NCBI GenBank assembly: GCA_963789265.1
Contig: CAWBKB010000005.1
Span: 416,001 to 480,000 of the forward strand
Direction of reading: 5' to 3'
Source: an uncultured delta proteobacterium
GTDB taxonomy: Bacteria; Desulfobacterota; Desulfomonilia; Desulfomonilales; Desulfomonilaceae
DNA length: 64,000 bases
The notes below the pieces were generated by a model, which was not told the origin of the DNA, searched no databases, and worked only from the letters and a program-made list of their open reading frames with translations. The position numbers and the translations under genes were made by a program. Below, in pieces: positions 1 to 57,246 of this stretch. Each line of letters opens with the position of its first letter. The first letter of the stretch is position 1.

Positions 1-487
1 CAATGAAGAGGAGTAAGACAAATGGGAATTTTCATGGACTGCATCGTGGTCACGCTGGAGGCGATGCGGTGGCTCTACGTTATCCTGGAGCTGCTAATTC
101 GGTGCATGCTTGGCGTAGGGTGATAGGCGTGCCCAAGCGGGGGCGCTCTATATCTTAGGCACAAACAGAATACATCGAGAAAGGAGCACCTAAATGGCGC
201 TTCCATAAGCCAACATGTCCTCGCCATCCTTACTCGAACACGGCTTGGCAGTACTTATAAGTGGAGGAAAGAGTATGGCCGTATCAAGGTATCGCCCACC
301 CACTCCTGAGGCCATATTTACAACCTGGATCGCCGGCACTACACCCGGAAATCCTTTCCCTCTACCAGGAGATCAAGGCACTATACCTCTACCTTAACAA
401 GTGGCACATAATCTGGTGGCTGTTCAGGACAACAGGAAGAAGCTGGACAAGACATTCATGCGCATAGTCCCTGGCCTTAACCGCAGA

Positions 488-1264
488 TTAAGGGAATGGG
501 ATTTCTTCAGAATCATATCGTTCTTTAATCTTCTCGTTCAATTGGACCTTGGCTTTCAAATAATCCTCAGATTTTACCCACATTCTGATTTCAATCTTTA
601 TCCCCTTGTCCCCAAGCTCCTTTATAGTGATGGTTGGCGGCGGGTCCTTCAGGATCAGATCCTCTCCCTCAACGATTTTTTGCAGAGCATCTCTGATGGC
701 CTTGAGATCAGCCTTATAGGTCACTCCGATTACTATTCTCAGTCGGCGGGTATCCCGACGGGAGTAGTTGATGACCTTGTCCGCTGTCAGCTTCGAATTG
801 GGTATGATTACGGTAACGTTTTCTGGTGTGAGAACCTCGGTGGACATCAATTCGATCTTCTCGACTGTGCCCGCGGAGCCCCCACCGTCAATGTAATCTC
901 CCACCCTGAATGGTCGGAAAATGATGATAAGCAGACCTGATGCAACGTTTGACATTTGTTGTCTCAGAGCAAACCCAATGGCAAGACCGGCAGCTCCAAG
1001 CATCGCCACTAGGGAGGTAGTTTCAACTCCCAATCTGTGGAGCGCTGCAATGAGAATCACACCATACAGGAGAACCTGAAGGCTGCTGTCCGAAAAATAG
1101 ATAACCGTAGGGTCAAGTTTTCGAGTTGTGAGTGCCCGCATTAGAGTCTTCCTGATCAATTTTGCTAGCCAGAAGCCTACGAGGATGATGATTAGGGCTC
1201 CAACTAAACGCCAAGCGTAGTTGCCCAATGTTTTTAGCACTTGTGCCACAATGGCTTCCCACAT
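488..1264 (-). CDS. mscS: Small-conductance mechanosensitive channel
   Basis: 258 aa, three TM segments, GAAGLAIGFAL...SNVASG...RPFRVGD motifs, IIPNSKL. Confidence 0.9.
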   Translation of the reverse strand: MWEAIVAQVLKTLGNYAWRLVGALIIILVGFWLAKLIRKTLMRALTTRKLDPTVIYFSDSSLQVLLYGVILIAALHRLGVETTSLVAMLGAAGLAIGFALRQQMSNVASGLLIIIFRPFRVGDYIDGGGSAGTVEKIELMSTEVLTPENVTVIIPNSKLTADKVINYSRRDTRRLRIVIGVTYKADLKAIRDALQKIVEGEDLILKDPPPTITIKELGDKGIKIEIRMWVKSEDYLKAKVQLNEKIKERYDSEEIPFP

Positions 1265-4957: not shown

Positions 4958-5659
4958 GACATCATCGTGAATGCTCGTCGCATCAACAGCGGCTTGATGC
5001 CTCGACTTCAGCCCAATGCCGAGGGAAGGAACGATTTCTATTTCATCGAGAAGACGGAGCCGGAAGTAGCGCTCCGAATAATTTTGGATTTCGTCGGCAG
5101 TAGAATCAGAAACGCGTTCGGATTCGATCCGATTGACGAGGTTCATATCCTGACTCCGATGAATCGGGGCTTGGTTGGAACAACCAACCTCAATGTCGAG
5201 CTTCAGAAGGCTCTCAATCCGAGAGAGGACGGGGTAACGAGGGGCGGCAGGAACTTCCGGTTCGATGACAAGGTGATGCAGATCAGGAACAACTATGACA
5301 AAGAGGTCTTCAACGGGGATATTGGGCGAATTATTCGGATTGAGACGGAAATGCAGGAGCTGACGATCACGTTCGATGGGCGATCCGTGGTCTACGATTA
5401 CTCAGACCTGGACGAGTTGGTCCTCGCCTACGCTGTCTCAGTCCACAAGGCGCAGGGCTCCGAATACCCTTGCGTGGTGATTCCCCTCCTGACTCAGCAC
5501 TATATCCTGCTGCAACGGAACCTGTTATACACTGCCATCACGAGAGGAAAGAGACTGGTCATCGTGGTGGGGAGCAAGAAGGCTTTGGCTATTGCGGTCA
5601 AGAATGACAAGACCCAGAAGAGGTTCACGTGGCTGAGGAATCGGCTACGCCCCTTGTAA
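4958..5659 (+). pseudogene. recD2: C-terminal fragment of a RecD2-like SF1 helicase
   Basis: IIVNARRIN, DKVMQIRNNYDKEVFNGDIG, LAYAVSVHKAQGSEY, RNLLYTAITRGK. No N-terminal or Walker A region recognisable upstream. Confidence 0.8.
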
Positions 5660-5943: not shown

Positions 5944-7215
5944 ATGGCTATATCCAAAGTTGACTATCTCAACGATAAGCTCGCTAAGATTTTCAAGATG
6001 GGGTGCGAGTCGGACGGAAGCTTTGCGAATCGTCGTGTAATTATTGGTTCTGGAAAACTCGCCTTTTTACTCTGTGATCAAACCATTGATGCCTATGAAG
6101 ATGTTGTGAAGACTCTGTTGGCGGACGAAGACTGGAGTTCTCGTTTTTCAGAGAAGTTCATCGAGGAAGGCTTGAACCGAATTCTGTTGACGATGACCGA
6201 AGAAATGACCTCAGCCAATCTCAAAATACATGTGACTCATCTCATTGAAGATTTGCAAAGTTACTCAAAAGAGCACGTTGTCTATATTCCCCTGACGGGG
6301 GTACAAATTGAGGGCGAACCAGTCCGCATTGGAAATGTCACTATCAAGGAAATAACAGATGATGAATTGGTTTCAATATTAGAGAGGTGGGAGAGGCATT
6401 TTCCTGAAGTATCAGGGGGCTCAATTGAGAGACAAAACAATATCAGGAGCACCCAGCGGAACATAGTTGAAGCTTTGCGCGGGACTACCGTTACAGAATT
6501 CCATGTAATTTCTGAACCTATTAGAGCAAGAGAAAGGGCCTTAGAAGAAACTGGGCGAATCCTAGATATTCTGCGCTACTCCATTCCAGCTTTGTACCCA
6601 CCTGATAGTGATGTGAAGATCGGTATAATGGGTGATCTGTTTAAAGGGCCTGTAACGCAGCTAGTTCTTGCAACTGATTCCACCGGCCTGAACAAAAACC
6701 AGGAATGGGTGGGTCCGTTACAACCTCTGCGCCTGACACCAGAAAACCGTGAACACATGCTTTCTATGGGAGTTTTTCGCTTAAGTGGCATATTGCAGAA
6801 GCGGTATAGTGATGTGAATGATTTTGAGCGAGCCTTACTTCGTGGGTTACACTGGTATGCAAATGCTCAAACCCGAAATGATCCTGCAGACCGATTACGT
6901 GATTTGGTTACGTGCTTGGAAGTATACCTTACTCCGAAAGATGGAAATCCGATAGGCACGGCAGTTGCTGAGGCAGCGGCAATAATTGTCGCGAGTGATC
7001 TTCAAGACCGAAAACGCATCAAGAAAAAAATAAAGGAATTATACAGCTCAAGAAGCGCAGTGTCGCATGGTGGCCGAACATCGGTTTTGAATCAGGACGT
7101 GCATGATCTTGGGCAAATTGCCGGGCAGCTTACAATGATTCTTATCAACAGATCACATGAGTTCACGACTAGGAAAGACTTACTTGAATGGGTTGAGAAC
7201 CAGAAGCTCGGCTGA
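5944..7215 (+). CDS. HEPN domain protein (ApeA-like architecture), putative RNase/defence effector
   Basis: C-terminal ALLRGLHWY...LVTCLEVYL...KELYSSRSAVSHG with R-x4-H at 7051-7068; visibly more AT-rich than core genes. Confidence 0.75.
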   Translation: MAISKVDYLNDKLAKIFKMGCESDGSFANRRVIIGSGKLAFLLCDQTIDAYEDVVKTLLADEDWSSRFSEKFIEEGLNRILLTMTEEMTSANLKIHVTHLIEDLQSYSKEHVVYIPLTGVQIEGEPVRIGNVTIKEITDDELVSILERWERHFPEVSGGSIERQNNIRSTQRNIVEALRGTTVTEFHVISEPIRARERALEETGRILDILRYSIPALYPPDSDVKIGIMGDLFKGPVTQLVLATDSTGLNKNQEWVGPLQPLRLTPENREHMLSMGVFRLSGILQKRYSDVNDFERALLRGLHWYANAQTRNDPADRLRDLVTCLEVYLTPKDGNPIGTAVAEAAAIIVASDLQDRKRIKKKIKELYSSRSAVSHGGRTSVLNQDVHDLGQIAGQLTMILINRSHEFTTRKDLLEWVENQKLG

Positions 7216-36180: not shown

Positions 36181-36461
36181 TCGACCATGAGTCTGACATT
36201 TCGGTGTCCGAGGCACGTGCTATTAGATTCTTGTTCGAAGGACTGGTACGTAACACTGTCTGCAAAATACTGCTAAGGCAACACTGGGACTGCGTGGAAG
36301 CCTTTATCTACTTGGACTCTTTGTCCTCGGACTTTGCGGTTTTGGGTCCTTTCTCAGTTGAGAACTGACAACCACACCCGCATTGCTCCTGCTCTTTTTC
36401 CTGCTTTCGGTCTTGCTCTTTCTCGCTCATCTTTATCACTTCCTCCTTCTCCGGATCGTTT

Positions 36462-36656
36462 TCACTTTTCTTTACGTTCTTTCAGCCGCTCTTCCACTGC
36501 GGCCAGTTCCTTTTTTAATTGGTCACGGTAATTTTCCAGCCACTCTTCTTCCTCTTTTGCAGTGTAGAAATGCCGGAACGAATGACCGCCGCCACCACAG
36601 CCACACGTGCATCCTCCCATCCCTGCAAATCTATGATGTGATCCTGGATGACACAT
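36462..36656 (-). CDS. Small Cys/His-rich coiled-coil protein (DUF5320-like)
   Basis: MCHPGSHH...CTCGC...EEEEWLENYRDQLKKELAAVEERLKE; GAGG RBS. Confidence 0.75.
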   Translation of the reverse strand: MCHPGSHHRFAGMGGCTCGCGGGGHSFRHFYTAKEEEEWLENYRDQLKKELAAVEERLKERKEK

Positions 36657-36865: not shown

Positions 36866-37294
36866 TTATTTCTCTTTCCCCACCTTTTCCATTTGGGTCC
36901 GCACCTTTTTCAACTCGTCCTCAAGTTCCTGCTCCAACCGCCGCAGGTACGCCAGTTCTTCTTCCCTTGATTTAACTTCCTCGCCCATAGTCCGGTCCGG
37001 CATCCGACAACTCCCCTCACAACCGCAACGGCAAACGTTAGAGATAACTTCGCCGCATTGATCAAGCGCGGCCTGGTCCACCTCGTAGGGTATCCAGAAG
37101 CCTTTGCGCTGATTCCGAACAAGTCCGGCGTGTCTGAGGATCTTGAGATGCTGGGATACCGCAGACGGGGTTATGCCAAGCGTTTGTGCTATTTCATTCA
37201 CGTACAGGGGTCCCCTTTGCTTCAGGAGATCAATGATCCTGATCCGAGATTCAACACCAAGGACTTTGAACAGTTCCGCTTCCTTGCGACACAT
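36866..37294 (-). CDS. ArsR/SmtB regulator with a C-terminal Cys cluster and coiled coil
   Basis: FKVLG..SRIRII..L...SAVSQHLKILRHAGLV...RKG..IPY; tail CRCGCEGSC...EEELAYLRRLEQELEDEL. Confidence 0.88.
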   Translation of the reverse strand: MCRKEAELFKVLGVESRIRIIDLLKQRGPLYVNEIAQTLGITPSAVSQHLKILRHAGLVRNQRKGFWIPYEVDQAALDQCGEVISNVCRCGCEGSCRMPDRTMGEEVKSREEELAYLRRLEQELEDELKKVRTQMEKVGKEK

Positions 37295-37327: not shown

Positions 37328-37447
37328 ATGCTACAATGACCTCCTGCTCCATGTCAAGATAATTTTCGGAAAGCCTGAAAAAAGTTTCTTGACACGCAAC
37401 CTAAGAATTGCAATAAATATATCAATGGCCATTAATGTATTGATTGC
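37328..37447. promoter_or_regulatory. Divergent sigma70-like promoters and an ArsR-type operator palindrome
   Basis: TTGACA on - (37357-37352) with TAGCAT (37333-37328); TTGACA on + (37389-37394); 38-bp imperfect palindrome 37410-37447 centred on ATCAA-TGGCCA-TTAAT. Confidence 0.65.
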
Positions 37448-37480: not shown

Positions 37481-37816
37481 TTGCCCGTCAAAGAACAAGA
37501 CAAACCTCTCGATCTCGAACAAAACCTGGGCATCGCAGCCTTTGTGAGCAAGAGCCTTTCGGATGAGAACCGCCTCCGAATCCTTTTGTCGTTGCGCAAC
37601 GGCAGGAAGACCGTCTCTACCATAGTGGAGGAGATGAATCTTTCTCAACCCCTGGTTTCCCATCATCTGAAGGAGCTGAGACGGTGCCTCCTGGTGAACG
37701 TGGAGCGCAAGGGCTTGTTCGTGTACTACGAGATCGCGGACGAGAGAATCATCGAAATAGTTTGGCAACTGGCGTATCTGGCAGCGGATCTGCTCTCGCA
37801 GAGAGATACCTTCTAG
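37481..37816 (+). CDS. ArsR/SmtB family repressor heading the selenoprotein operon
   Basis: KSLSDENRLRIL...SQPLVSHHLKELRR..LV..ERKGLFVYY; AAGGAG RBS, TTG start. Confidence 0.9.
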   Translation: MPVKEQDKPLDLEQNLGIAAFVSKSLSDENRLRILLSLRNGRKTVSTIVEEMNLSQPLVSHHLKELRRCLLVNVERKGLFVYYEIADERIIEIVWQLAYLAADLLSQRDTF

Positions 37817-37834
37817 CTTTTGGAGTGGAATCAC

Positions 37835-38290
37835 ATGAATAAGGGAAGAATTCAGGACCTTGTCGAGTCAATGGATCCAATTGACGCAGCCAAGGAGATG
37901 GCTGACGCAGCGAAGAAACTCTTCTCTCTTTTAGGAGAAGAAGCACTTCGCGATTTTCTCATCAATCTGATCGGAAACGGGGGCCAGGACAAGATTACCG
38001 GCCTGGTCCACTTATGACTGGCTACATGCATGGACGAAGGTGTCGATCCAAAAGCAATGTGCCAGAGTTTAGTGGAAAAAATAAGTCAATCCGAGCAACT
38101 GCGTTCGGTGACGGACCCGCAGATTCTTATTCTGTTTGAGGACTGGCTGGAAGAACTGGAAAAGGAGGCAGTGAGTGTGATTGAGCGTGGAGGCCCCACT
38201 GCCCCCGAAGACCTGTCCAGAGAGTTGGGTTTATCACAATCCGGCTCGATGTTCCTCATTACGAAGCTCAAAAGAGACGGCAAGATATAG
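37835..38290 (+). CDS. tsoA: LULAxC-motif selenoprotein (TsoA-like), 151 aa, Sec at codon 61 (TGA 38015-38017)
   Basis: ORFs 37820-38017 and 38030-38290 are in frame across TGA: GLVHL-U-LATCMDEGVDP. SECIS-like hairpin follows. Family name recalled, not searched. Confidence 0.85.
38018..38065 (+). promoter_or_regulatory. Putative bacterial SECIS element for tsoA
   Basis: Stems CTGGC/GCCAG, ACAT/ATGT, TGGA/TCCA, CGA/TCG; apical loop AGGTG 20 nt after UGA. Confidence 0.75.
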
Positions 38291-38328
38291 GTTTTCATCG
38301 TACCCAGAGTTCCGGACTGGAGGCTGAC

Positions 38329-40089
38329 ATGGCAATCGAGGTGAACTGGAAAAGACTTTGGCTCCCGCTCTTGGCGATCACGGTAACGGTGGGAGTTCTC
38401 TGGTTCACAAACAGAGAGGTGACCCCAAGGGAACCAAAGTGGAACGACGTGGTAGTTGAAGCCAGGGAAGGCGGCTACCGGCTCATAAATACCGATGGAC
38501 TCAGGCAGCGGTACGAAGCAGATCCCCGGAGCATTTTGTTGGTGGATGCCCGTCAGGACTGGGAATTTGCAATGGGCCACATAAAAGGCGCGGTCAATTT
38601 CCCAATGGAACCTACTGCGTGGTCGAGATGGCGGAAAAGGGGCAAACTCGCGCAGGCGCTTGGTCCCGACAAGAATCGCTTCATCGTATTTTACTGAGCA
38701 GGACTTACCTGAGTCCGTAGCGACTCTGCCGCTCGTGTAGCGGTGCAACTAGGTTACAAGAATGTATATCGTGACGCAAAGGGGTTTCCAGAATGGAAGG
38801 CTGCCGGTCTTCCCATTGAAAGCATTCCTGCGGATCGGACAAGATCCGCATCTGTACCTGAAAACGCCGGGCCACTATACGGCTGGGCAATGCTCTGGAC
38901 CTTATTGGGTGTCTTCGGAGGCGGACTGGCACTCAACCTTACGCCGTGCGTTTATCCCTTAATTCCTATAACCGTCTCCTACTTTGGGGGCAGGAGCGGT
39001 CAGAGACGCGGAAAATTGGCAGTTCACGGTTTGCTGTATCTGGGTGGTCTGTCCGTGACCAACTCAGTGTTAGGGGTAGCGGCGGCTCTCACGGGAAGCC
39101 TGATGGGAGCGGCGCTTCAGAACCCCGTAGTGTTGGTGGTTGTCGCCGGTGTTCTGGTTTTCTTTGCCACAAGCCTCTTCGGATTCTGGGAGCTGCAACT
39201 TCCCCAGAATCTTGCAAGGGCAGCATCCAAGTCGTACGCAGGATACTTTGGTACGCTGTTCATGGGCCTGACTCTCGGTGTAGTTGCAGCTCCGTGTCTG
39301 GGACCTTTCGTCCTGGGGTTGCTTACTTGGGTGGCGAGTATGGGCAGCCCTTGGTTGGGTTTTCTCATCTTCTTCACGCTCAGCCTTGGGTTGGGAGTGC
39401 CGCTCTTTATCCTGGCGATGTTCTCAGGCAGCCTGGAAAAGCTCCCCGGTTCGGGTGAGTGGATGCTGTGGGTGAGAAAACTGATGGGCTGGGTGTTGAT
39501 CGGAATGGCTGCGTATTTTGTCAAACCTCTGTTACCGTCCTCGGCAGGTGTGTTTGTATTGGCGGCAGTAGCCCTAGCAGCAGGGTTGCACCTGGGGTGG
39601 ATCGACGGTACTCAAGCCGGTTTCAAAGCATTCGGCGTGCTGAGAAACGTGGTCGGTATAGCCAGTGTAGTCTTGGGGGCTTTTCTGCTCGGTTCCTGGC
39701 TAATGGTAGGACCTGGAGTCTCATGGCGACCGTATTCCGATGAAGCACTCGAGCAGGCCCTAAAGTCTAACAAGCCGGTAATCGTAGATTTTTCCGCAAC
39801 GTGGTGTACGCCATGCCGTGAACTCGAAGATATTACGTTTCGTGATCCGCAAGTGGTGAAACAGGCTAAAGACGGCTTCGTCATGGTCAAGGTTGACCTG
39901 ACCAAAAAGGGGAACCCGCTCTACGAAAAACTGGTCGCGCTATATGCGATCAAAGGGGTCCCGACGGTGGTTTTCTTCGACGGTCATGGCAGAGAACGTG
40001 CCGATCTGCGCCTGGTTGATTTCATCCCCGCTGATCAATTCTTGAGCAGAATGACTCAGGCAATGCAATCATGGAACTCGGGTTCATGA
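38329..40089 (+). CDS. tsoB: Rhodanese-DsbD(beta)-thioredoxin fusion selenoprotein (TsoB-like), 586 aa, Sec at codons 123 and 128
   Basis: In-frame read-through of TGA 38695 and TGA 38710 gives IVFY-U-AGLT-U-VRSDSAARVAVQLGYKNVY...GFPEWKAAGLP, a complete rhodanese. Then LTPCVYP, AAPCLGP and WCTPC. Family name recalled. Confidence 0.88.
38711..38757 (+). promoter_or_regulatory. Two staggered putative SECIS hairpins for tsoB
   Basis: GAGTC-CGTAGC-GACTC (38711-38726; loop 18 nt after the first UGA) and GCCGCT-CGTGT-AGCGGT (38728-38744; loop 21 nt after the second UGA) with lower stem GTAGC/GTTAC. Confidence 0.6.
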
Positions 40090-40117
40090 GAACCCGTAAA
40101 ACAAGGAGGGAGGAATC

Positions 40118-40393
40118 ATGTTGAAAGTCCGCTTTTTTATGAATGAACCCAATGGCAAGCCTTGAAGACACTTCAAGGAAATGGCGTCCAGGTTGGGCGC
40201 AGAATACCCCATCGACATTGAAGTTACGTCAAAGCCACGCGCTGAATACCGAACCGATGAATGGGCCGAGACAGAACTTCCCTGCGCTCCGGCAATCATG
40301 ATCGGCGAAGACGTTGTGGCAGAAGGGTCGGATGTTACCGAAGAGAAGGTTGTTGCCGAGATCAGAAAACAACTGAGTATGCCCCCAATTTAA
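40118..40393 (+). CDS. tsoC: NEPxGxxU-motif thioredoxin-like selenoprotein (TsoC-like), Sec at codon 16 (TGA 40163-40165)
   Basis: Strong RBS (GGAGGGAGG) before ATG 40118; MLKVRFFMNEPNGKP-U-RHFKEM is in frame with ORF 40181-40393; LPCAPAIMIG cis-Pro-like loop. Family name recalled. Confidence 0.85.
40172..40204 (+). promoter_or_regulatory. Putative SECIS element for tsoC
   Basis: GCGTCC-AGGTT-GGGCGC (40184-40200), loop 24 nt after UGA; loop begins AGGT like the tsoA hairpin. Confidence 0.65.
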
Positions 40394-40484
40394 ACCGGAG
40401 AAGACAGGGATCTTGGGTAGTGGATTTGACAAGCGAGTCTCATAGCGTGTCAACGGAACCTATTTCTAATCTATTGGCAGAAAA

Positions 40485-41337
40485 ATGAATATGCTCATCA
40501 TAGAGAATGAGCCAATAATAAGGCTCGTTTTTTTCCTGGGAATATTTTTGGCTGTGGCGTTGGGAGAGCTCGCCGCCCCTCGCCGCCGCCTTCTCACATC
40601 CAAGGCTTCTCGCTGGTTCGCTAACATAGCGATAGTCATCATAAATACTGCCGTTGTAAGATTTATGTTTCCTGTCGCAGCCGTAGGCATGGCAGTAATT
40701 GCGGCTCAGAAGCATTGGGGACTCTTTAACAACCTCGCGATGACGTTACTGGGTCGCTGTCGTCTTGTCGGTGGTCATTCTTGATTTCGTAATTTACCTG
40801 CAGCATGTCTTGTTCCATGCAATTCCGATCTTTTTCCGATTGCACATGATGCACCACGCGGACTTAGACTTTGATCTGACTACAGGCACTCGTTTTCACC
40901 CAATCGAAATCATCCTTTCCATGCTGGTTAAAGTCGCAGCCGTTGTCCTCATCGGAGCGCCCGCAGTGGCGGTCATCATCTTTGAAATGATCCTGAACGC
41001 TACATCTACATTTAATCACGGTAATGTGCTTCTCCCTCTGGGGATAGATCGAGTGTTGCGGCTACTCGTGGTCACCCCTGATATGCACCACGTTCATCAC
41101 TCTGTTTTTCCTTTTGAGACGAACAGCAACTTCGGCTTCAATTTTCCTTGGTGGGATCGCCTCATGGGAACTTACCGAGACCAGCCAAGATCGGGCCACG
41201 TTGAGATGGCAATAGGGTTGAATCAGTTCCGAGACCCCTCGCGCCTCACACTACTAAGAATATTGGCCCTCCCGTTTGTCGGCACAACCGGCAACTATCC
41301 TATCAATCGCCGCGGCGTTTCCGGTGGAGATTCTTGA
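40485..41337 (+). CDS. Sterol desaturase/fatty-acid hydroxylase family membrane protein; +1 frameshift near 40746
   Basis: His boxes HVLFH, HMMHH, FNHGN, HHVHH; NSNFG...WDRLMGTY. The two ORFs join as NLAMTYWVAVVLSVV. Confidence 0.85.
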
Positions 41338-41404: not shown

Positions 41405-42572
41405 CTAACTCTCTCTCAGCGCGTCAACAATCTTCAGGCGAGCCGCTCTCCATGCCGGCAGCAATCCGCCCATGAAGCCCATTGCAATAGCGAAAGCCAT
41501 TGTGGAACCGGCAATGGACGGGGTCAGTTCGAATCCGAAGGCCAACTCAGAAAAGGTGCTCCAGTTCATTGTTGAAATGGTCAAAAATTGAAGTAGCGAA
41601 CCGCAAGCCACTCCTGCTGTGCCTCCGATCAAGCCGAGGAGGACAGACTCGGCCAAAAAGGCTACCAGGATGTTTCTTCTCCTGAATCCAAGCGCCCTCA
41701 GGGTGCCGATTTCGCCGGTGCGATTGGCTACCGCGGAGTACATTGTCACCATGGCCCCGAGTATGGCGCCTATGCTGAAAAACATCGTCGTGGCAAGTCC
41801 CAATATCCGGATAAACTTGGCCATCACTTCAGACTGTTCTTTGTAAAATGCGATCTCCCGCTTAACTTGTACCGGAGAGACGCGGATCTTTTTCCAGGCG
41901 ATTTTTCAAGTCCTCGAACGCCTTTCGTCCGGGCACTTTCAGTATTACGTCAGAATAAGCGGTCCTTCGGAACGCGGACAGCAACTGATCGACATCTCCC
42001 CACACCTCGGAATTAAAAGCTGTTTTGCCCGCGTCAAATACACCCACGACGTTCCAATCAGAAAGAGCGAAATGCAAGGTTTGGCCAAGTGAGCCGCCTG
42101 TGACGGTCTCCGCGATGCTTTTGCCGGCGATTACTTCTCGGGAACCCGGCCGAAAAGTCCGTCCCGCAATCAATTTCACTTGAGGCCTGAGATCCATGGC
42201 CTTCATCCCAACTCCTCGCACGACTACATTTGTCGGCTTGCCCGTCTTCTTTTTCGGCACGGTTACCAACACAAGGGCCTCTTTGGACGCGATGGGCCCG
42301 CCGCGCGCGTCTTCGGCTATTTCAGGCTGAATTTCTATAACCGCGGCTGAATCGCGGTCGATGACACTGGATACCTCTGTTTGCGCCGAGCCCCTCAGGA
42401 CTATGGCATTACCGGGAGAACCCGTGTCGATCAGAGTTTGTTGTAATCCCTGGGCTAACATCAGCACCGCAGCAAAGACAAAGGTGACAAGAGCCATGCC
42501 TCCCGCGGTGAGAATACTGGTCCATTTTCTTGTCCAGAGATTGCGGAAACTGTAGCTAAAAGGTATGGCCAT
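41405..42572 (-). CDS. ABC transporter permease (MacB/FtsX-like); +1 frameshift near 41873
   Basis: YSFRNLW, periplasmic core, RTGEIGTLRALGF, GGLLPAWRAARLKIVDALRE. The ORFs join as RLSVQVKREIAFY. Confidence 0.85.
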
Positions 42573-43646: not shown

Positions 43647-43852
43647 GAGGCTGTCTCAAAACTATATTGATGACCAGAATCGTGCCACGATGCAGCCCGG
43701 CGCTGAAGCACCGGTCTACTTTCTATCGCCCCGATGGGGCTCAAACGCAAGAGTCCCGGAGGGACAAGGGATAGTAGCCCGGTAATTCATTACCGGGAAA
43801 GTGGGGCATCGTGCCACGAATCTCGTTCATGCCTCCCTTTTGAGACAGCCTC
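43647..43852. mobile_element. MITE (206 bp), 15-bp TIR, 4-bp TSD CATG, inserted in a REP palindrome
   Basis: GAGGCTGTCTCAAAA...TTTTGAGACAGCCTC flanked by CATG; the empty site rebuilds as GTAGAGGCACGGCATGCCGTGCCTCTAC. Confidence 0.85.
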
Positions 43853-56928: not shown

Positions 56929-57246
56929 TCATTTTTCCCGGGCGGACAGCAATTCATCCGTCCACGCGTACGCCGCGATCATTGCTGGAAACCCTACTAT
57001 GGTCGCCGATAAGAGAACTGTCTGAGTTATCTCTTCTTCAGTGGCTCCCGCGTCCAGTGCCCGCCGCGCGTGGGATCGAACTCCCCCCTTGGAAGCCATT
57101 CCAATGGAAATTCCAAGCTGGATTAGATGTTGGGCCTTAAGATCAATAGGCCCGGCTGCCGTGCAAAGATCCCCAACTTTTCGGTATGCATCGGCTATTT
57201 CACCATGCCTGTCCATAAACTTCTTGAAGATTTCCGGCAAGTACAT
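56929..57246 (-). CDS. Carboxymuconolactone decarboxylase (AhpD-like) family protein
   Basis: GPIDLK..HLIQLGI, HARRALDAGATEEEI, GFP; AAGGAGG RBS. Confidence 0.85.
   Translation of the reverse strand: MYLPEIFKKFMDRHGEIADAYRKVGDLCTAAGPIDLKAQHLIQLGISIGMASKGGVRSHARRALDAGATEEEITQTVLLSATIVGFPAMIAAYAWTDELLSAREK

Follow-up and report, generated by a model that had tools for sequence, protein, structure and literature searches.

We analysed a stretch of 64,000 nucleotides (the window) from an uncultured delta proteobacterium of the Desulfomonilaceae (contig CAWBKB010000005.1, positions 416,001 to 480,000), in which four genes, tsoR, tsoA, tsoB and tsoC, lie co-linearly on one strand between positions 37481 and 40393 of the window, separated by intergenic gaps of 18-38 nt (Table 1). 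Under genetic code table 11 the tsoA-tsoC region is divided into five open reading frames (ORFs) of 65, 86, 122, 448 and 70 amino acids. When TGA is read as selenocysteine (Sec, U), these are replaced by three ORFs of 151, 586 and 91 amino acids, and a GGAG-type ribosome-binding site can be read from the sequence 6-10 nt 5' of each of their starts. An earlier sequence-only reading of this DNA had proposed that five fragments collapse into three genes, each led by a ribosome-binding site, when UGA is read through, and both the ORF lists and the GGAG-type sites agree with that proposal. The four TGA codons that it named, beginning at 38015, 38695, 38710 and 40163, are in frame, and the redox-type motifs around them are as it wrote them: HLULATC in TsoA, FYUAGLTUVRS (holding UAGLTU) in TsoB and NEPNGKPU in TsoC.

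The four products all exceed the curated cut-offs of their NCBIfam models. TsoR scores 150.3 bits against a cut-off of 115 (NF045707), TsoA 213.2 against 170 (NF045695), TsoB 995.6 against 805 (NF045694) and TsoC 136.2 against 45 (NF045708). The family names TsoA, TsoB and TsoC given in the earlier reading were therefore right. Pfam gave nothing above threshold for TsoA or TsoC. In a 2026 review, the name "Tso (three selenoprotein operon)" is attributed to Haft & Tolstoy 2025 (mSystems 10:e0141724), and the motifs given there for TsoA, TsoB and TsoC, namely LULAxC, UxxxxU and NEPxGxxU, are the same as in the window (PMC13188914). Because all four cut-offs are exceeded and the operon has been named in print, the locus belongs to a kind that is already known, and the description of it as a "hidden" operon does not stand. 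By these curated criteria the window copy is an ortholog of Tso. We conclude that the locus is almost certainly an ordinary copy of the published Tso operon in a Desulfomonile-like Desulfobacterota host, in which the four UGAs are decoded as Sec with the help of downstream hairpins. An NCBIfam scan of 76 ordinary ORFs and 15 other TGA read-through ORFs of the window found no TsoX or TsoY, and the 15 read-through ORFs matched no NCBIfam family. A literature search for the locus tags Dbac_1936-1938 or Desti_2076-2078 found no paper.

Table 1. Features of the window, in window coordinates unless residues are stated.
Feature	Position	Strand	Description
tsoR	37481-37816	+	ArsR/SmtB-family regulator, TTG start, 111 aa; NF045707 and Pfam HTH_5
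tsoA	37835-38290	+	151 aa, Sec61 in HLULATC; predicted cytoplasmic, helical, winged-helix-like C-terminus
UGA of TsoA Sec61	38015-38017	+	in-frame TGA
tsoA SECIS-like hairpin	38031-38050	+	stem 38031-38037/38043-38050, loop AGGUG 38038-38042, 20 nt after UGA
tsoB	38329-40089	+	586 aa, Sec123 and Sec128; own stop TGA
TsoB domains	residues 10-28; 68-159; 189-401; 466-551		anchor; Rhodanese; DsbD_TM; Thioredoxin_7 (Pfam and hydropathy)
UGA of TsoB Sec123	38695-38697	+	in-frame TGA
UGA of TsoB Sec128	38710-38712	+	in-frame TGA
Nearer tsoB stem	38711-38715/38722-38726	+	GAGUC/GACUC, after first UGA
tsoB SECIS-like hairpin	38728-38744	+	stem 38728-38733/38739-38744, loop CGUGU; single covarying hairpin
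tsoC	40118-40393	+	91 aa, Sec16 in NEPNGKPU; thioredoxin fold; predicted cytoplasmic
UGA of TsoC Sec16	40163-40165	+	in-frame TGA
tsoC SECIS-like hairpin	40184-40200	+	stem 40184-40190/40194-40200, loop GGU 40191-40193, 25 nt after UGA
TsoC Cys56 codon	40283-40285	+	
TsoC tail remnant	40389-40445	+	+1 frame, FKPEKTGILGSGFDKRVS; out of frame relative to other TsoC
TTGACA	37389-37394	+	likely -35 box of the tsoR promoter, read from sequence
Putative TsoR operator	37419-37438	.	8-4-8 palindrome ATATCAAT-GGCC-ATTAATGT, within imperfect palindrome 37410-37447
Second ArsR-family gene	36866-37294	-	divergent from tsoR; CRCGCEGSC cluster, coiled-coil tail
Cys/His-rich 64-aa ORF	36462-36656	-	weak DUF5320 match; after second ArsR gene
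43-aa ORF with CGCGC	36308-36439	-	after second ArsR gene
Fatty-acid hydroxylase gene, split	40485-40784; 40765-41337	+	two overlapping frames
MacB-type permease gene, split	41862-42572; 41405-41827	-	periplasmic-core part; FtsX part
Acido-Lenti-1 small RNA match	43752-43797	-	Rfam, 41.7 bits against gathering score 37; adjoins lipB-like gene
230-aa ORF	4967-5659	+	probable gene fragment, RecD2 helicase
Small AhpD-like ORF	56929-57246	-	weak AhpD-domain likeness, 26 bits

Comparison with related loci supports selenocysteine decoding well. The window proteins were mapped onto 80 related loci from species-representative genomes, which were chosen as the best matches to TsoB and are nearly all metagenome-assembled genomes of Desulfobacterota, with Desulfacinum infernum DSM 9756 in addition. 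The order R-A-B-C occurs in 40 of the 80. At each Sec column, all loci with coverage have TGA (45 of 45 for TsoA, 76 of 76 for each of the two TsoB columns and 68 of 68 for TsoC). The reading frame is conserved beyond each TGA, with flanks at 41-92% identity, and the ordinary Cys codons of TsoB switch freely between TGC and TGT. Among the best 120 database relatives of TsoB, 114 are without the rhodanese part, their gene calls starting after the second TGA; the six full-length homologs comprise four with Cys/Cys, one with Gly/Arg and one that does not have the segment. Five database homologs of TsoC span the Sec site and have C, C, W, W and R, and the three full-length TsoA homologs have W. 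Tryptophan at these columns is most simply explained as TGA that was called under another code. Database homologs with Cys at the TGA columns thus number four for TsoB, with Cys at both columns, and two for TsoC, and the three TsoA homologs have W alone.

Each UGA is followed by a hairpin that resembles a bacterial selenocysteine insertion sequence (SECIS). The bacterial SECIS model, as described in the same review, has a loop of 3-9 nt with G in one of its first two positions, 16-37 nt after the UGA (PMC13188914). The loops AGGUG (tsoA), CGUGU (tsoB) and GGU (tsoC) all agree with this model at 20, 36/21 and 25 nt, the two tsoB distances being those from the first and the second UGA. The sequence-only reading had put a G-containing loop 18-24 nt downstream of each UGA; this is correct for tsoA and for the second UGA of tsoB, and the loops of tsoC and of the first tsoB UGA lie farther away. 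In alignments of 46 (tsoA), 77 (tsoB) and 69 (tsoC) sequences, 98.1%, 99.1% and 97.3% of the cells are paired, respectively. Compensatory changes are present: pair 20:33 of tsoA is GC in 29 sequences, AU in 15 and GU in 2, pair 36:52 of tsoB is GC in 55, AU in 15 and CG in 4, pair 39:45 of tsoB is CG in 70 and UA in 6, and three of the five pairs of the tsoC hairpin have changes on both sides. None of 500 shuffles reached the covariation score of any of the three hairpins, which also beat all slid controls; these results count as support and not as a probability, because the controls leave the kinship of the sequences in. Folded as a single sequence, the tsoA hairpin is more stable than its shuffles (z = -2.6). 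A nearer stem in tsoB, following the first UGA, has 97.4% of its cells paired and shows no covariation, and because it is invariant it gives no evidence either way. Since the covarying tsoB hairpin stands 36 and 21 nt from the two UGAs, which are 15 nt apart, one SECIS element could serve both of them.

Several observations weigh against this decoding. The 80 loci are biased to Sec forms because they were chosen as the best TsoB matches. In one TsoB homolog the two Sec columns are occupied by Gly/Arg, and among the three full-length TsoA homologs, with their W, there is no Cys form. The other three single-sequence folds have z-scores of -0.2 to -0.9 and are not distinct from shuffles, and a search of the window with Rfam returned no SECIS family at the gathering score. 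Neither selA, selB, selD nor a tRNA for Sec was found among the 76 ORFs and by the tRNA scan of the window, in which the single tRNA is one for Arg. This lack of Sec machinery in the window also favors an explanation in which the TGAs are true stops or errors, so that the fragments would represent remnants of pseudogenes, small genes in their own right, sequencing errors or the outcome of a genome-wide TGA reassignment, and the indel-type breaks nearby, in the tsoC tail, the fatty-acid hydroxylase gene and the MacB-type permease gene, point in the same direction. Against it, the same four TGAs are present in every covering locus, the frame is conserved on both sides of them and the hairpins covary; substitution errors would not recur in 45-76 independent assemblies; and TGA is an ordinary stop in 11 of 31 window genes. 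We regard it as very improbable, and the TGAs as stops, errors or signs of a changed code are close to excluded. Genome-wide TGA reassignment in particular was rejected because TGA ends 11 of the 31 family-matched genes in the window, tsoB included. The nearest named relatives of TsoB are from Desulfomonile tiedjei (84-86% identity), and one selenoprotein of this species is cited in a passage of a preprint; together these give indirect support for Sec decoding.

TsoB appears to combine a di-Sec rhodanese with a DsbD-type reductase. Pfam recognises the rhodanese (PF00581, E 2.9e-15) and the membrane core (DsbD_TM, E 1.2e-41), and sequence matches in the PDB include DsbD gamma (4ip1, E 5e-16), CcdA (5vkv, TsoB 191-393) and the rhodanese 6mxv. 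Sec123 aligns with the catalytic Cys of the rhodaneses 6mxv, 2hhg and 3d1p, and Sec128 falls within an active-site loop that is 2 residues longer than in these proteins. The membrane-core residues Cys207 and Cys323 are conserved as Cys in all 80 loci, and Cys493-x-x-Cys496 is Cys in 76 of 76; all four are always encoded by TGC or TGT. The hydropathy profile shows an N-terminal anchor after Lys8-Arg9, followed by the DsbD core. Eight helices were counted in the core by eye, with Lys/Arg-rich loops on alternating sides, and some of these helices are too Gly-rich for the threshold. With an N-terminal anchor and core helices that are even in number, the rhodanese domain would be on the same side as the thioredoxin domain, which we infer to be outside the membrane, as in DsbD.

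TsoC is predicted to be a small thioredoxin-fold protein. Its AlphaFold2 (AF2) model is of high quality (predicted local distance difference test, pLDDT, 89.5; predicted template modelling score, pTM, 0.79) and has Sec16 at the start of helix 1. Foldseek matched this model to thioredoxins with a probability of 1.00 and template modelling (TM) scores of 0.55-0.70 (3m9j, E 5e-4; 2e0q, TM 0.70), and ArsD was among the matches at rank 40. Hydropathy analysis found no hydrophobic segment in TsoA or TsoC. The gene lies 3' of tsoB in 66 of the 80 loci. The tail PEPxKKG[ILF]LGRLF[GK] ends 62 of 63 complete TsoC ORFs in the related loci and is close to the membrane-targeting tag of E. coli MinD (PMC5471200). 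It is likely, judging from this motif, that nearly all TsoC relatives carry a MinD-like amphipathic membrane-targeting tail. TsoC of the window is without it because of a 1-nt indel, which speaks against the mechanism proposed below. Compared with the closest locus, L001, where TsoC reads ...MPPLEPEKKGILGRLFK, one extra base has brought a TAA into frame (40380-40445). Either the frameshift is genuine or it stems from a homopolymer error.

Other TsoC features vary among the loci. TsoC of the window and of L001 has Cys56 beside the likely cis-Pro loop, where the others mostly have Val, and is without the Cys at residue 83 (ICRHL) that most relatives have; the second redox residue of TsoC may have moved in these two loci. 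The tsoB-tsoC gaps of the related loci were inspected by eye. In eight of them (L009, L017, L022, L026, L032, L037, L043 and L059) a second TsoC copy lies between tsoB and tsoC, mostly with NDPCGxTU (C-x-x-x-U), and those that were scanned (L032, L037, L043 and L059) are above the TsoC cut-off. In L048 the gap holds a 'GcvH-related protein' (NF045810) instead (6457-6963).

The domain order of TsoB, its invariant Cys pairs and the topology proposed above are all consistent with a trans-membrane relay. TsoB might work like DsbD, with reducing equivalents from the cytoplasm passing to the membrane pair Cys207/Cys323 and then to the periplasmic thioredoxin-like Cys493-x-x-Cys496. From this pair they would pass to the periplasmic rhodanese, which takes the place of the DsbD alpha domain and whose single, lengthened active-site loop holds both Sec123 and Sec128. 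Once reduced, the two Sec residues would act on a chalcogen or metalloid substrate in the periplasm, for example sulfane sulfur, polysulfide or a Se, Te or As species. Because of its thioredoxin fold, its MinD-like tail and the linkage of tsoC to tsoB, TsoC may be located at the inner face of the membrane as a partner of TsoB, and it would be the likeliest dedicated cytoplasmic partner, at the start of the electron path into TsoB. We propose this mechanism tentatively, and its chances fall a little short of even. Two comparisons with DsbD speak against it: TsoB scores 226.8 on the DsbD model PRK00293, whose cut-off is 330, and model positions 1-166, which make up the alpha domain, are unmatched in TsoB, where a rhodanese with two Sec residues stands in its place.

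Sec61, Cys65 and Cys76 are invariant in the TsoA alignment and His59 is nearly so, and Cys65 is always encoded as Cys in the related loci. AF2 models TsoA as entirely helical, with moderate confidence (pLDDT 75, pTM 0.39). No PDB entry matches TsoA significantly in sequence, and none of its fold matches reaches E<=1e-3. Similarity to winged helix-turn-helix domains (FtsK gamma, DeoR and LexA) is confined to the C-terminal ~45 residues, at a root-mean-square deviation of 1.1-2 A over 42-48 columns, with E-values of at least 0.3. Distant full-length relatives (P0374-P0476) came up in a profile search; against the TsoA model, whose cut-off is 170, they reach 52-80 bits. In these proteins Met-rich repeats (MMxxMM...) replace the Sec/Cys region, and the Cys76 position, a 'TPE..LFE.W' helix and the winged-helix part have for the most part been retained. 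They belong to no Pfam or NCBIfam family and gave sub-threshold matches to TsoA and weak matches to winged-helix and FeoC-type models. The Met-rich replacement hints at ligand binding rather than catalysis. The sequence-only reading had made TsoA a donor in the relay, and the case for that role comes down to gene order.

These features of TsoA bear on a different explanation, in which TsoB is a DsbD-like reductase fed by general thioredoxin and neither TsoA nor TsoC is a donor. In that case TsoA would use its winged helix to act as a Sec-based sensor or co-regulator, and TsoC would be a separate cytoplasmic redox protein or a client. DsbD of E. coli uses general thioredoxin, which provides a precedent. 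The resemblance of the TsoA C-terminus to DNA-binding winged helices, the lack of an obvious sensor site in TsoR and the absence of tsoA beside tsoB in 35 of the 80 loci by the criteria used, some of which is explained by contig ends, are also in keeping with such an arrangement. However, tsoB and tsoC are tightly paired (66 of 80 loci), the tail of TsoC resembles a membrane-targeting tail, and the E-values of the TsoA winged-helix matches, being at least 0.3, are non-significant. FeoC-type winged helices serve in protein binding rather than DNA binding, and the weak FeoC-type matches of the TsoA relatives therefore suggest protein binding over DNA binding. We consider this explanation as a whole to be quite unlikely.

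The regulator TsoR probably represses its own operon. Upstream of tsoR, a likely -35 box is followed by an 8-4-8 palindrome (Table 1), and a simple promoter scan listed no + strand promoter at 37389 because the stretch fails its -10 rule. The motif ATAT[AC]AA[TC]-N4-[AG]TT[TG]ATAT, with <=2 mismatches, was found 5' of tsoR in 35 of the 45 loci that have >=150 nt there, and TTGAC lies <=40 nt upstream of the operator in all 35. The palindrome at 37419-37438 is the sole match to the motif in the window. With the spacing fixed at 4, there are 49 motif clusters in 831 kb of loci, 35 of them 5' of tsoR and 3 immediately 5' of tsoB. The latter form a second 8-4-8 palindrome between tsoA and tsoB, 28-89 nt upstream of tsoB (L010 5895, L019 5891 and L028 5952). 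The conserved palindrome behind TTGACA, here and in 35 of 45 loci, makes the proposed ArsR-type control plausible, and TsoR probably binds this site, which overlaps the promoter. The suggestion that the operon responds to a metal(loid) is another matter. In an alignment of 47 sequences, no Cys or His of TsoR is conserved outside the SHHL recognition helix, and Cys69 is variable. Compared with the known sensing sites of the ArsR/SmtB family, TsoR has no conserved Cys/His ligand set, and its sequence gives no indication of metal(loid) sensing.

A second ArsR-family gene is divergent from tsoR and is followed by two small ORFs (Table 1). Homologs of this second regulator occur near tso in L009, L013, L022, L037 and L045, and in three of these they lie between tsoB and tsoC. 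The presence of two ArsR/SmtB regulators at the locus, the second with a CxCxC cluster and followed by small Cys-rich ORFs, brings to mind a relay of the mer type, in which a soft metal or metalloid is moved by ligand exchange and not by electrons. The ion, captured by the periplasmic Sec pair, would travel by way of the thioredoxin-like Cys pair and the membrane Cys pair to TsoC and TsoA in the cytoplasm, or the path would run in reverse, for export. The invariant Sec61, Cys65 and Cys76 of TsoA with the nearly invariant His59 would suit such a path, and the distant TsoA relatives, which swap the Sec region for Met-rich repeats and keep the Cys76 position and the winged helix, are a lead for it. 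The weak matches of TsoC-like proteins to MTH895/ArsE and the ArsD fold match also agree with it. On the other hand, the DsbD/CcdA core is known as a thiol-disulfide (electron) transporter and not as a metal channel. TsoR is without a conserved Cys/His ligand set, the second ArsR module is beside tso in only 5 of the 80 loci, and an NCBIfam scan of the window ORFs found no metal transporter or reductase family adjoining the operon. Metal transfer by ligand exchange is unlikely, in either direction.

Tso identity, Sec decoding and the electron relay through TsoB together make up the explanation that we consider best as a whole, and it is fairly probable. A wider conjecture, which we hold to be rather doubtful, is that Tso is a selenium-based variant of the DsbD pathway for periplasmic chalcogen or soft-metal chemistry in anaerobes. 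Tail-tethered TsoC would feed the DsbD core, which in turn would keep the di-Sec rhodanese loop reduced on the outside of the cell. TsoA would belong, as its Sec/Cys representative, to a broader family of Met-rich winged-helix proteins that has no name and whose members share one type of ligand.

The window contains other irregular genes. Next to tsoC, a fatty-acid hydroxylase gene is split into two overlapping frames and a MacB-type permease gene is split into a periplasmic-core part and an FtsX part. Together with the tsoC tail, these breaks suggest that the assembly contains indel errors or that several pseudogenes follow one another. A 230-aa ORF, probably a fragment of a gene, matches only the last third of a RecD2 helicase (model positions 485-712 of 713). 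A further small ORF is AhpD-like: it bears a weak resemblance to the AhpD domain in the model of an arsenite methyltransferase selenoprotein, and no TGA read-through extension of this ORF was seen. Rfam also matched the Acido-Lenti-1 small RNA beside a lipB-like gene.

As a discovery the locus has little weight: the operon, its name and its four families have already been curated and published, and current NCBI annotation rules should call the tso genes correctly. Its worth is that of a well-documented instance, in which three neighbouring genes have very clean comparative support for a total of four Sec codons. The TsoC tail, the 8-4-8 operator, the hairpin that may serve two UGAs and the Met-rich TsoA relatives may be details that have not been reported. 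The locus offers testable handles in the TsoR operator, the TsoC tail, the probable DsbD-type route to a periplasmic di-Sec rhodanese and the cultured carriers of the operon. Candidate carriers are Desulfomonile tiedjei DSM 6799, where Desti_2076 and Desti_2079 are fragments of tsoA and tsoC, Desulfacinum infernum DSM 9756 (L069) and perhaps Desulfomicrobium baculatum, to which the short model name Dbac_1936_reg points. Experiments could also build on the putative shared hairpin, on the relatives of TsoA and on the second ArsR module, which recurs among the loci. If the relay is true, the DsbD family would be extended to a Se-dependent periplasmic reductase in sulfate-reducing and related bacteria.

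Compared with known systems, TsoR has the HTH_5 winged helix in common with the ArsR/SmtB metal sensors, but it shows no conserved Cys/His/Asp/Glu ligand set of a known sensing site. TsoC has the same fold as thioredoxin (beta-alpha-beta...beta-beta-alpha), with the redox residue at the start of helix 1. Unlike thioredoxin, it has no CxxC and carries a single Sec in NGKPU; its paralogs in other loci have C-x-x-x-U, and its relatives have the MinD-like C-terminal tail. A TsoC paralog matches the MTH895/ArsE family (TIGR00412) weakly. Single-domain rhodaneses share their fold with TsoB, and Sec123 is at the position of their catalytic Cys, whereas TsoB has a longer loop, a second Sec and a fused reductase. 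The Sec-containing 'rhodanese-related (seleno)protein' family NF041203 is more distant, and TsoB reaches only 38 bits against its cut-off of 115.

In E. coli-type DsbD (PRK00293), the membrane core with two conserved Cys residues and the C-terminal periplasmic thioredoxin-like CxxC domain are common to TsoB, and residues 187-578 of TsoB align in register with model positions 167-572. The ScsB/CcdA branch of the DsbD superfamily joins the same membrane core to another periplasmic acceptor domain or to none, and the CcdA structure that matches TsoB belongs to it. We know of no member of this branch with a rhodanese domain or selenocysteine. The closest counterpart of the locus is the published Tso operon itself. 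The window copy differs from it in the TsoC tail, which is out of frame, and in Cys56 of TsoC, which is common to only 1 of 66 related loci. None of these differences is essential, and the likeness extends to the family cut-offs, the Sec motifs and the gene order.

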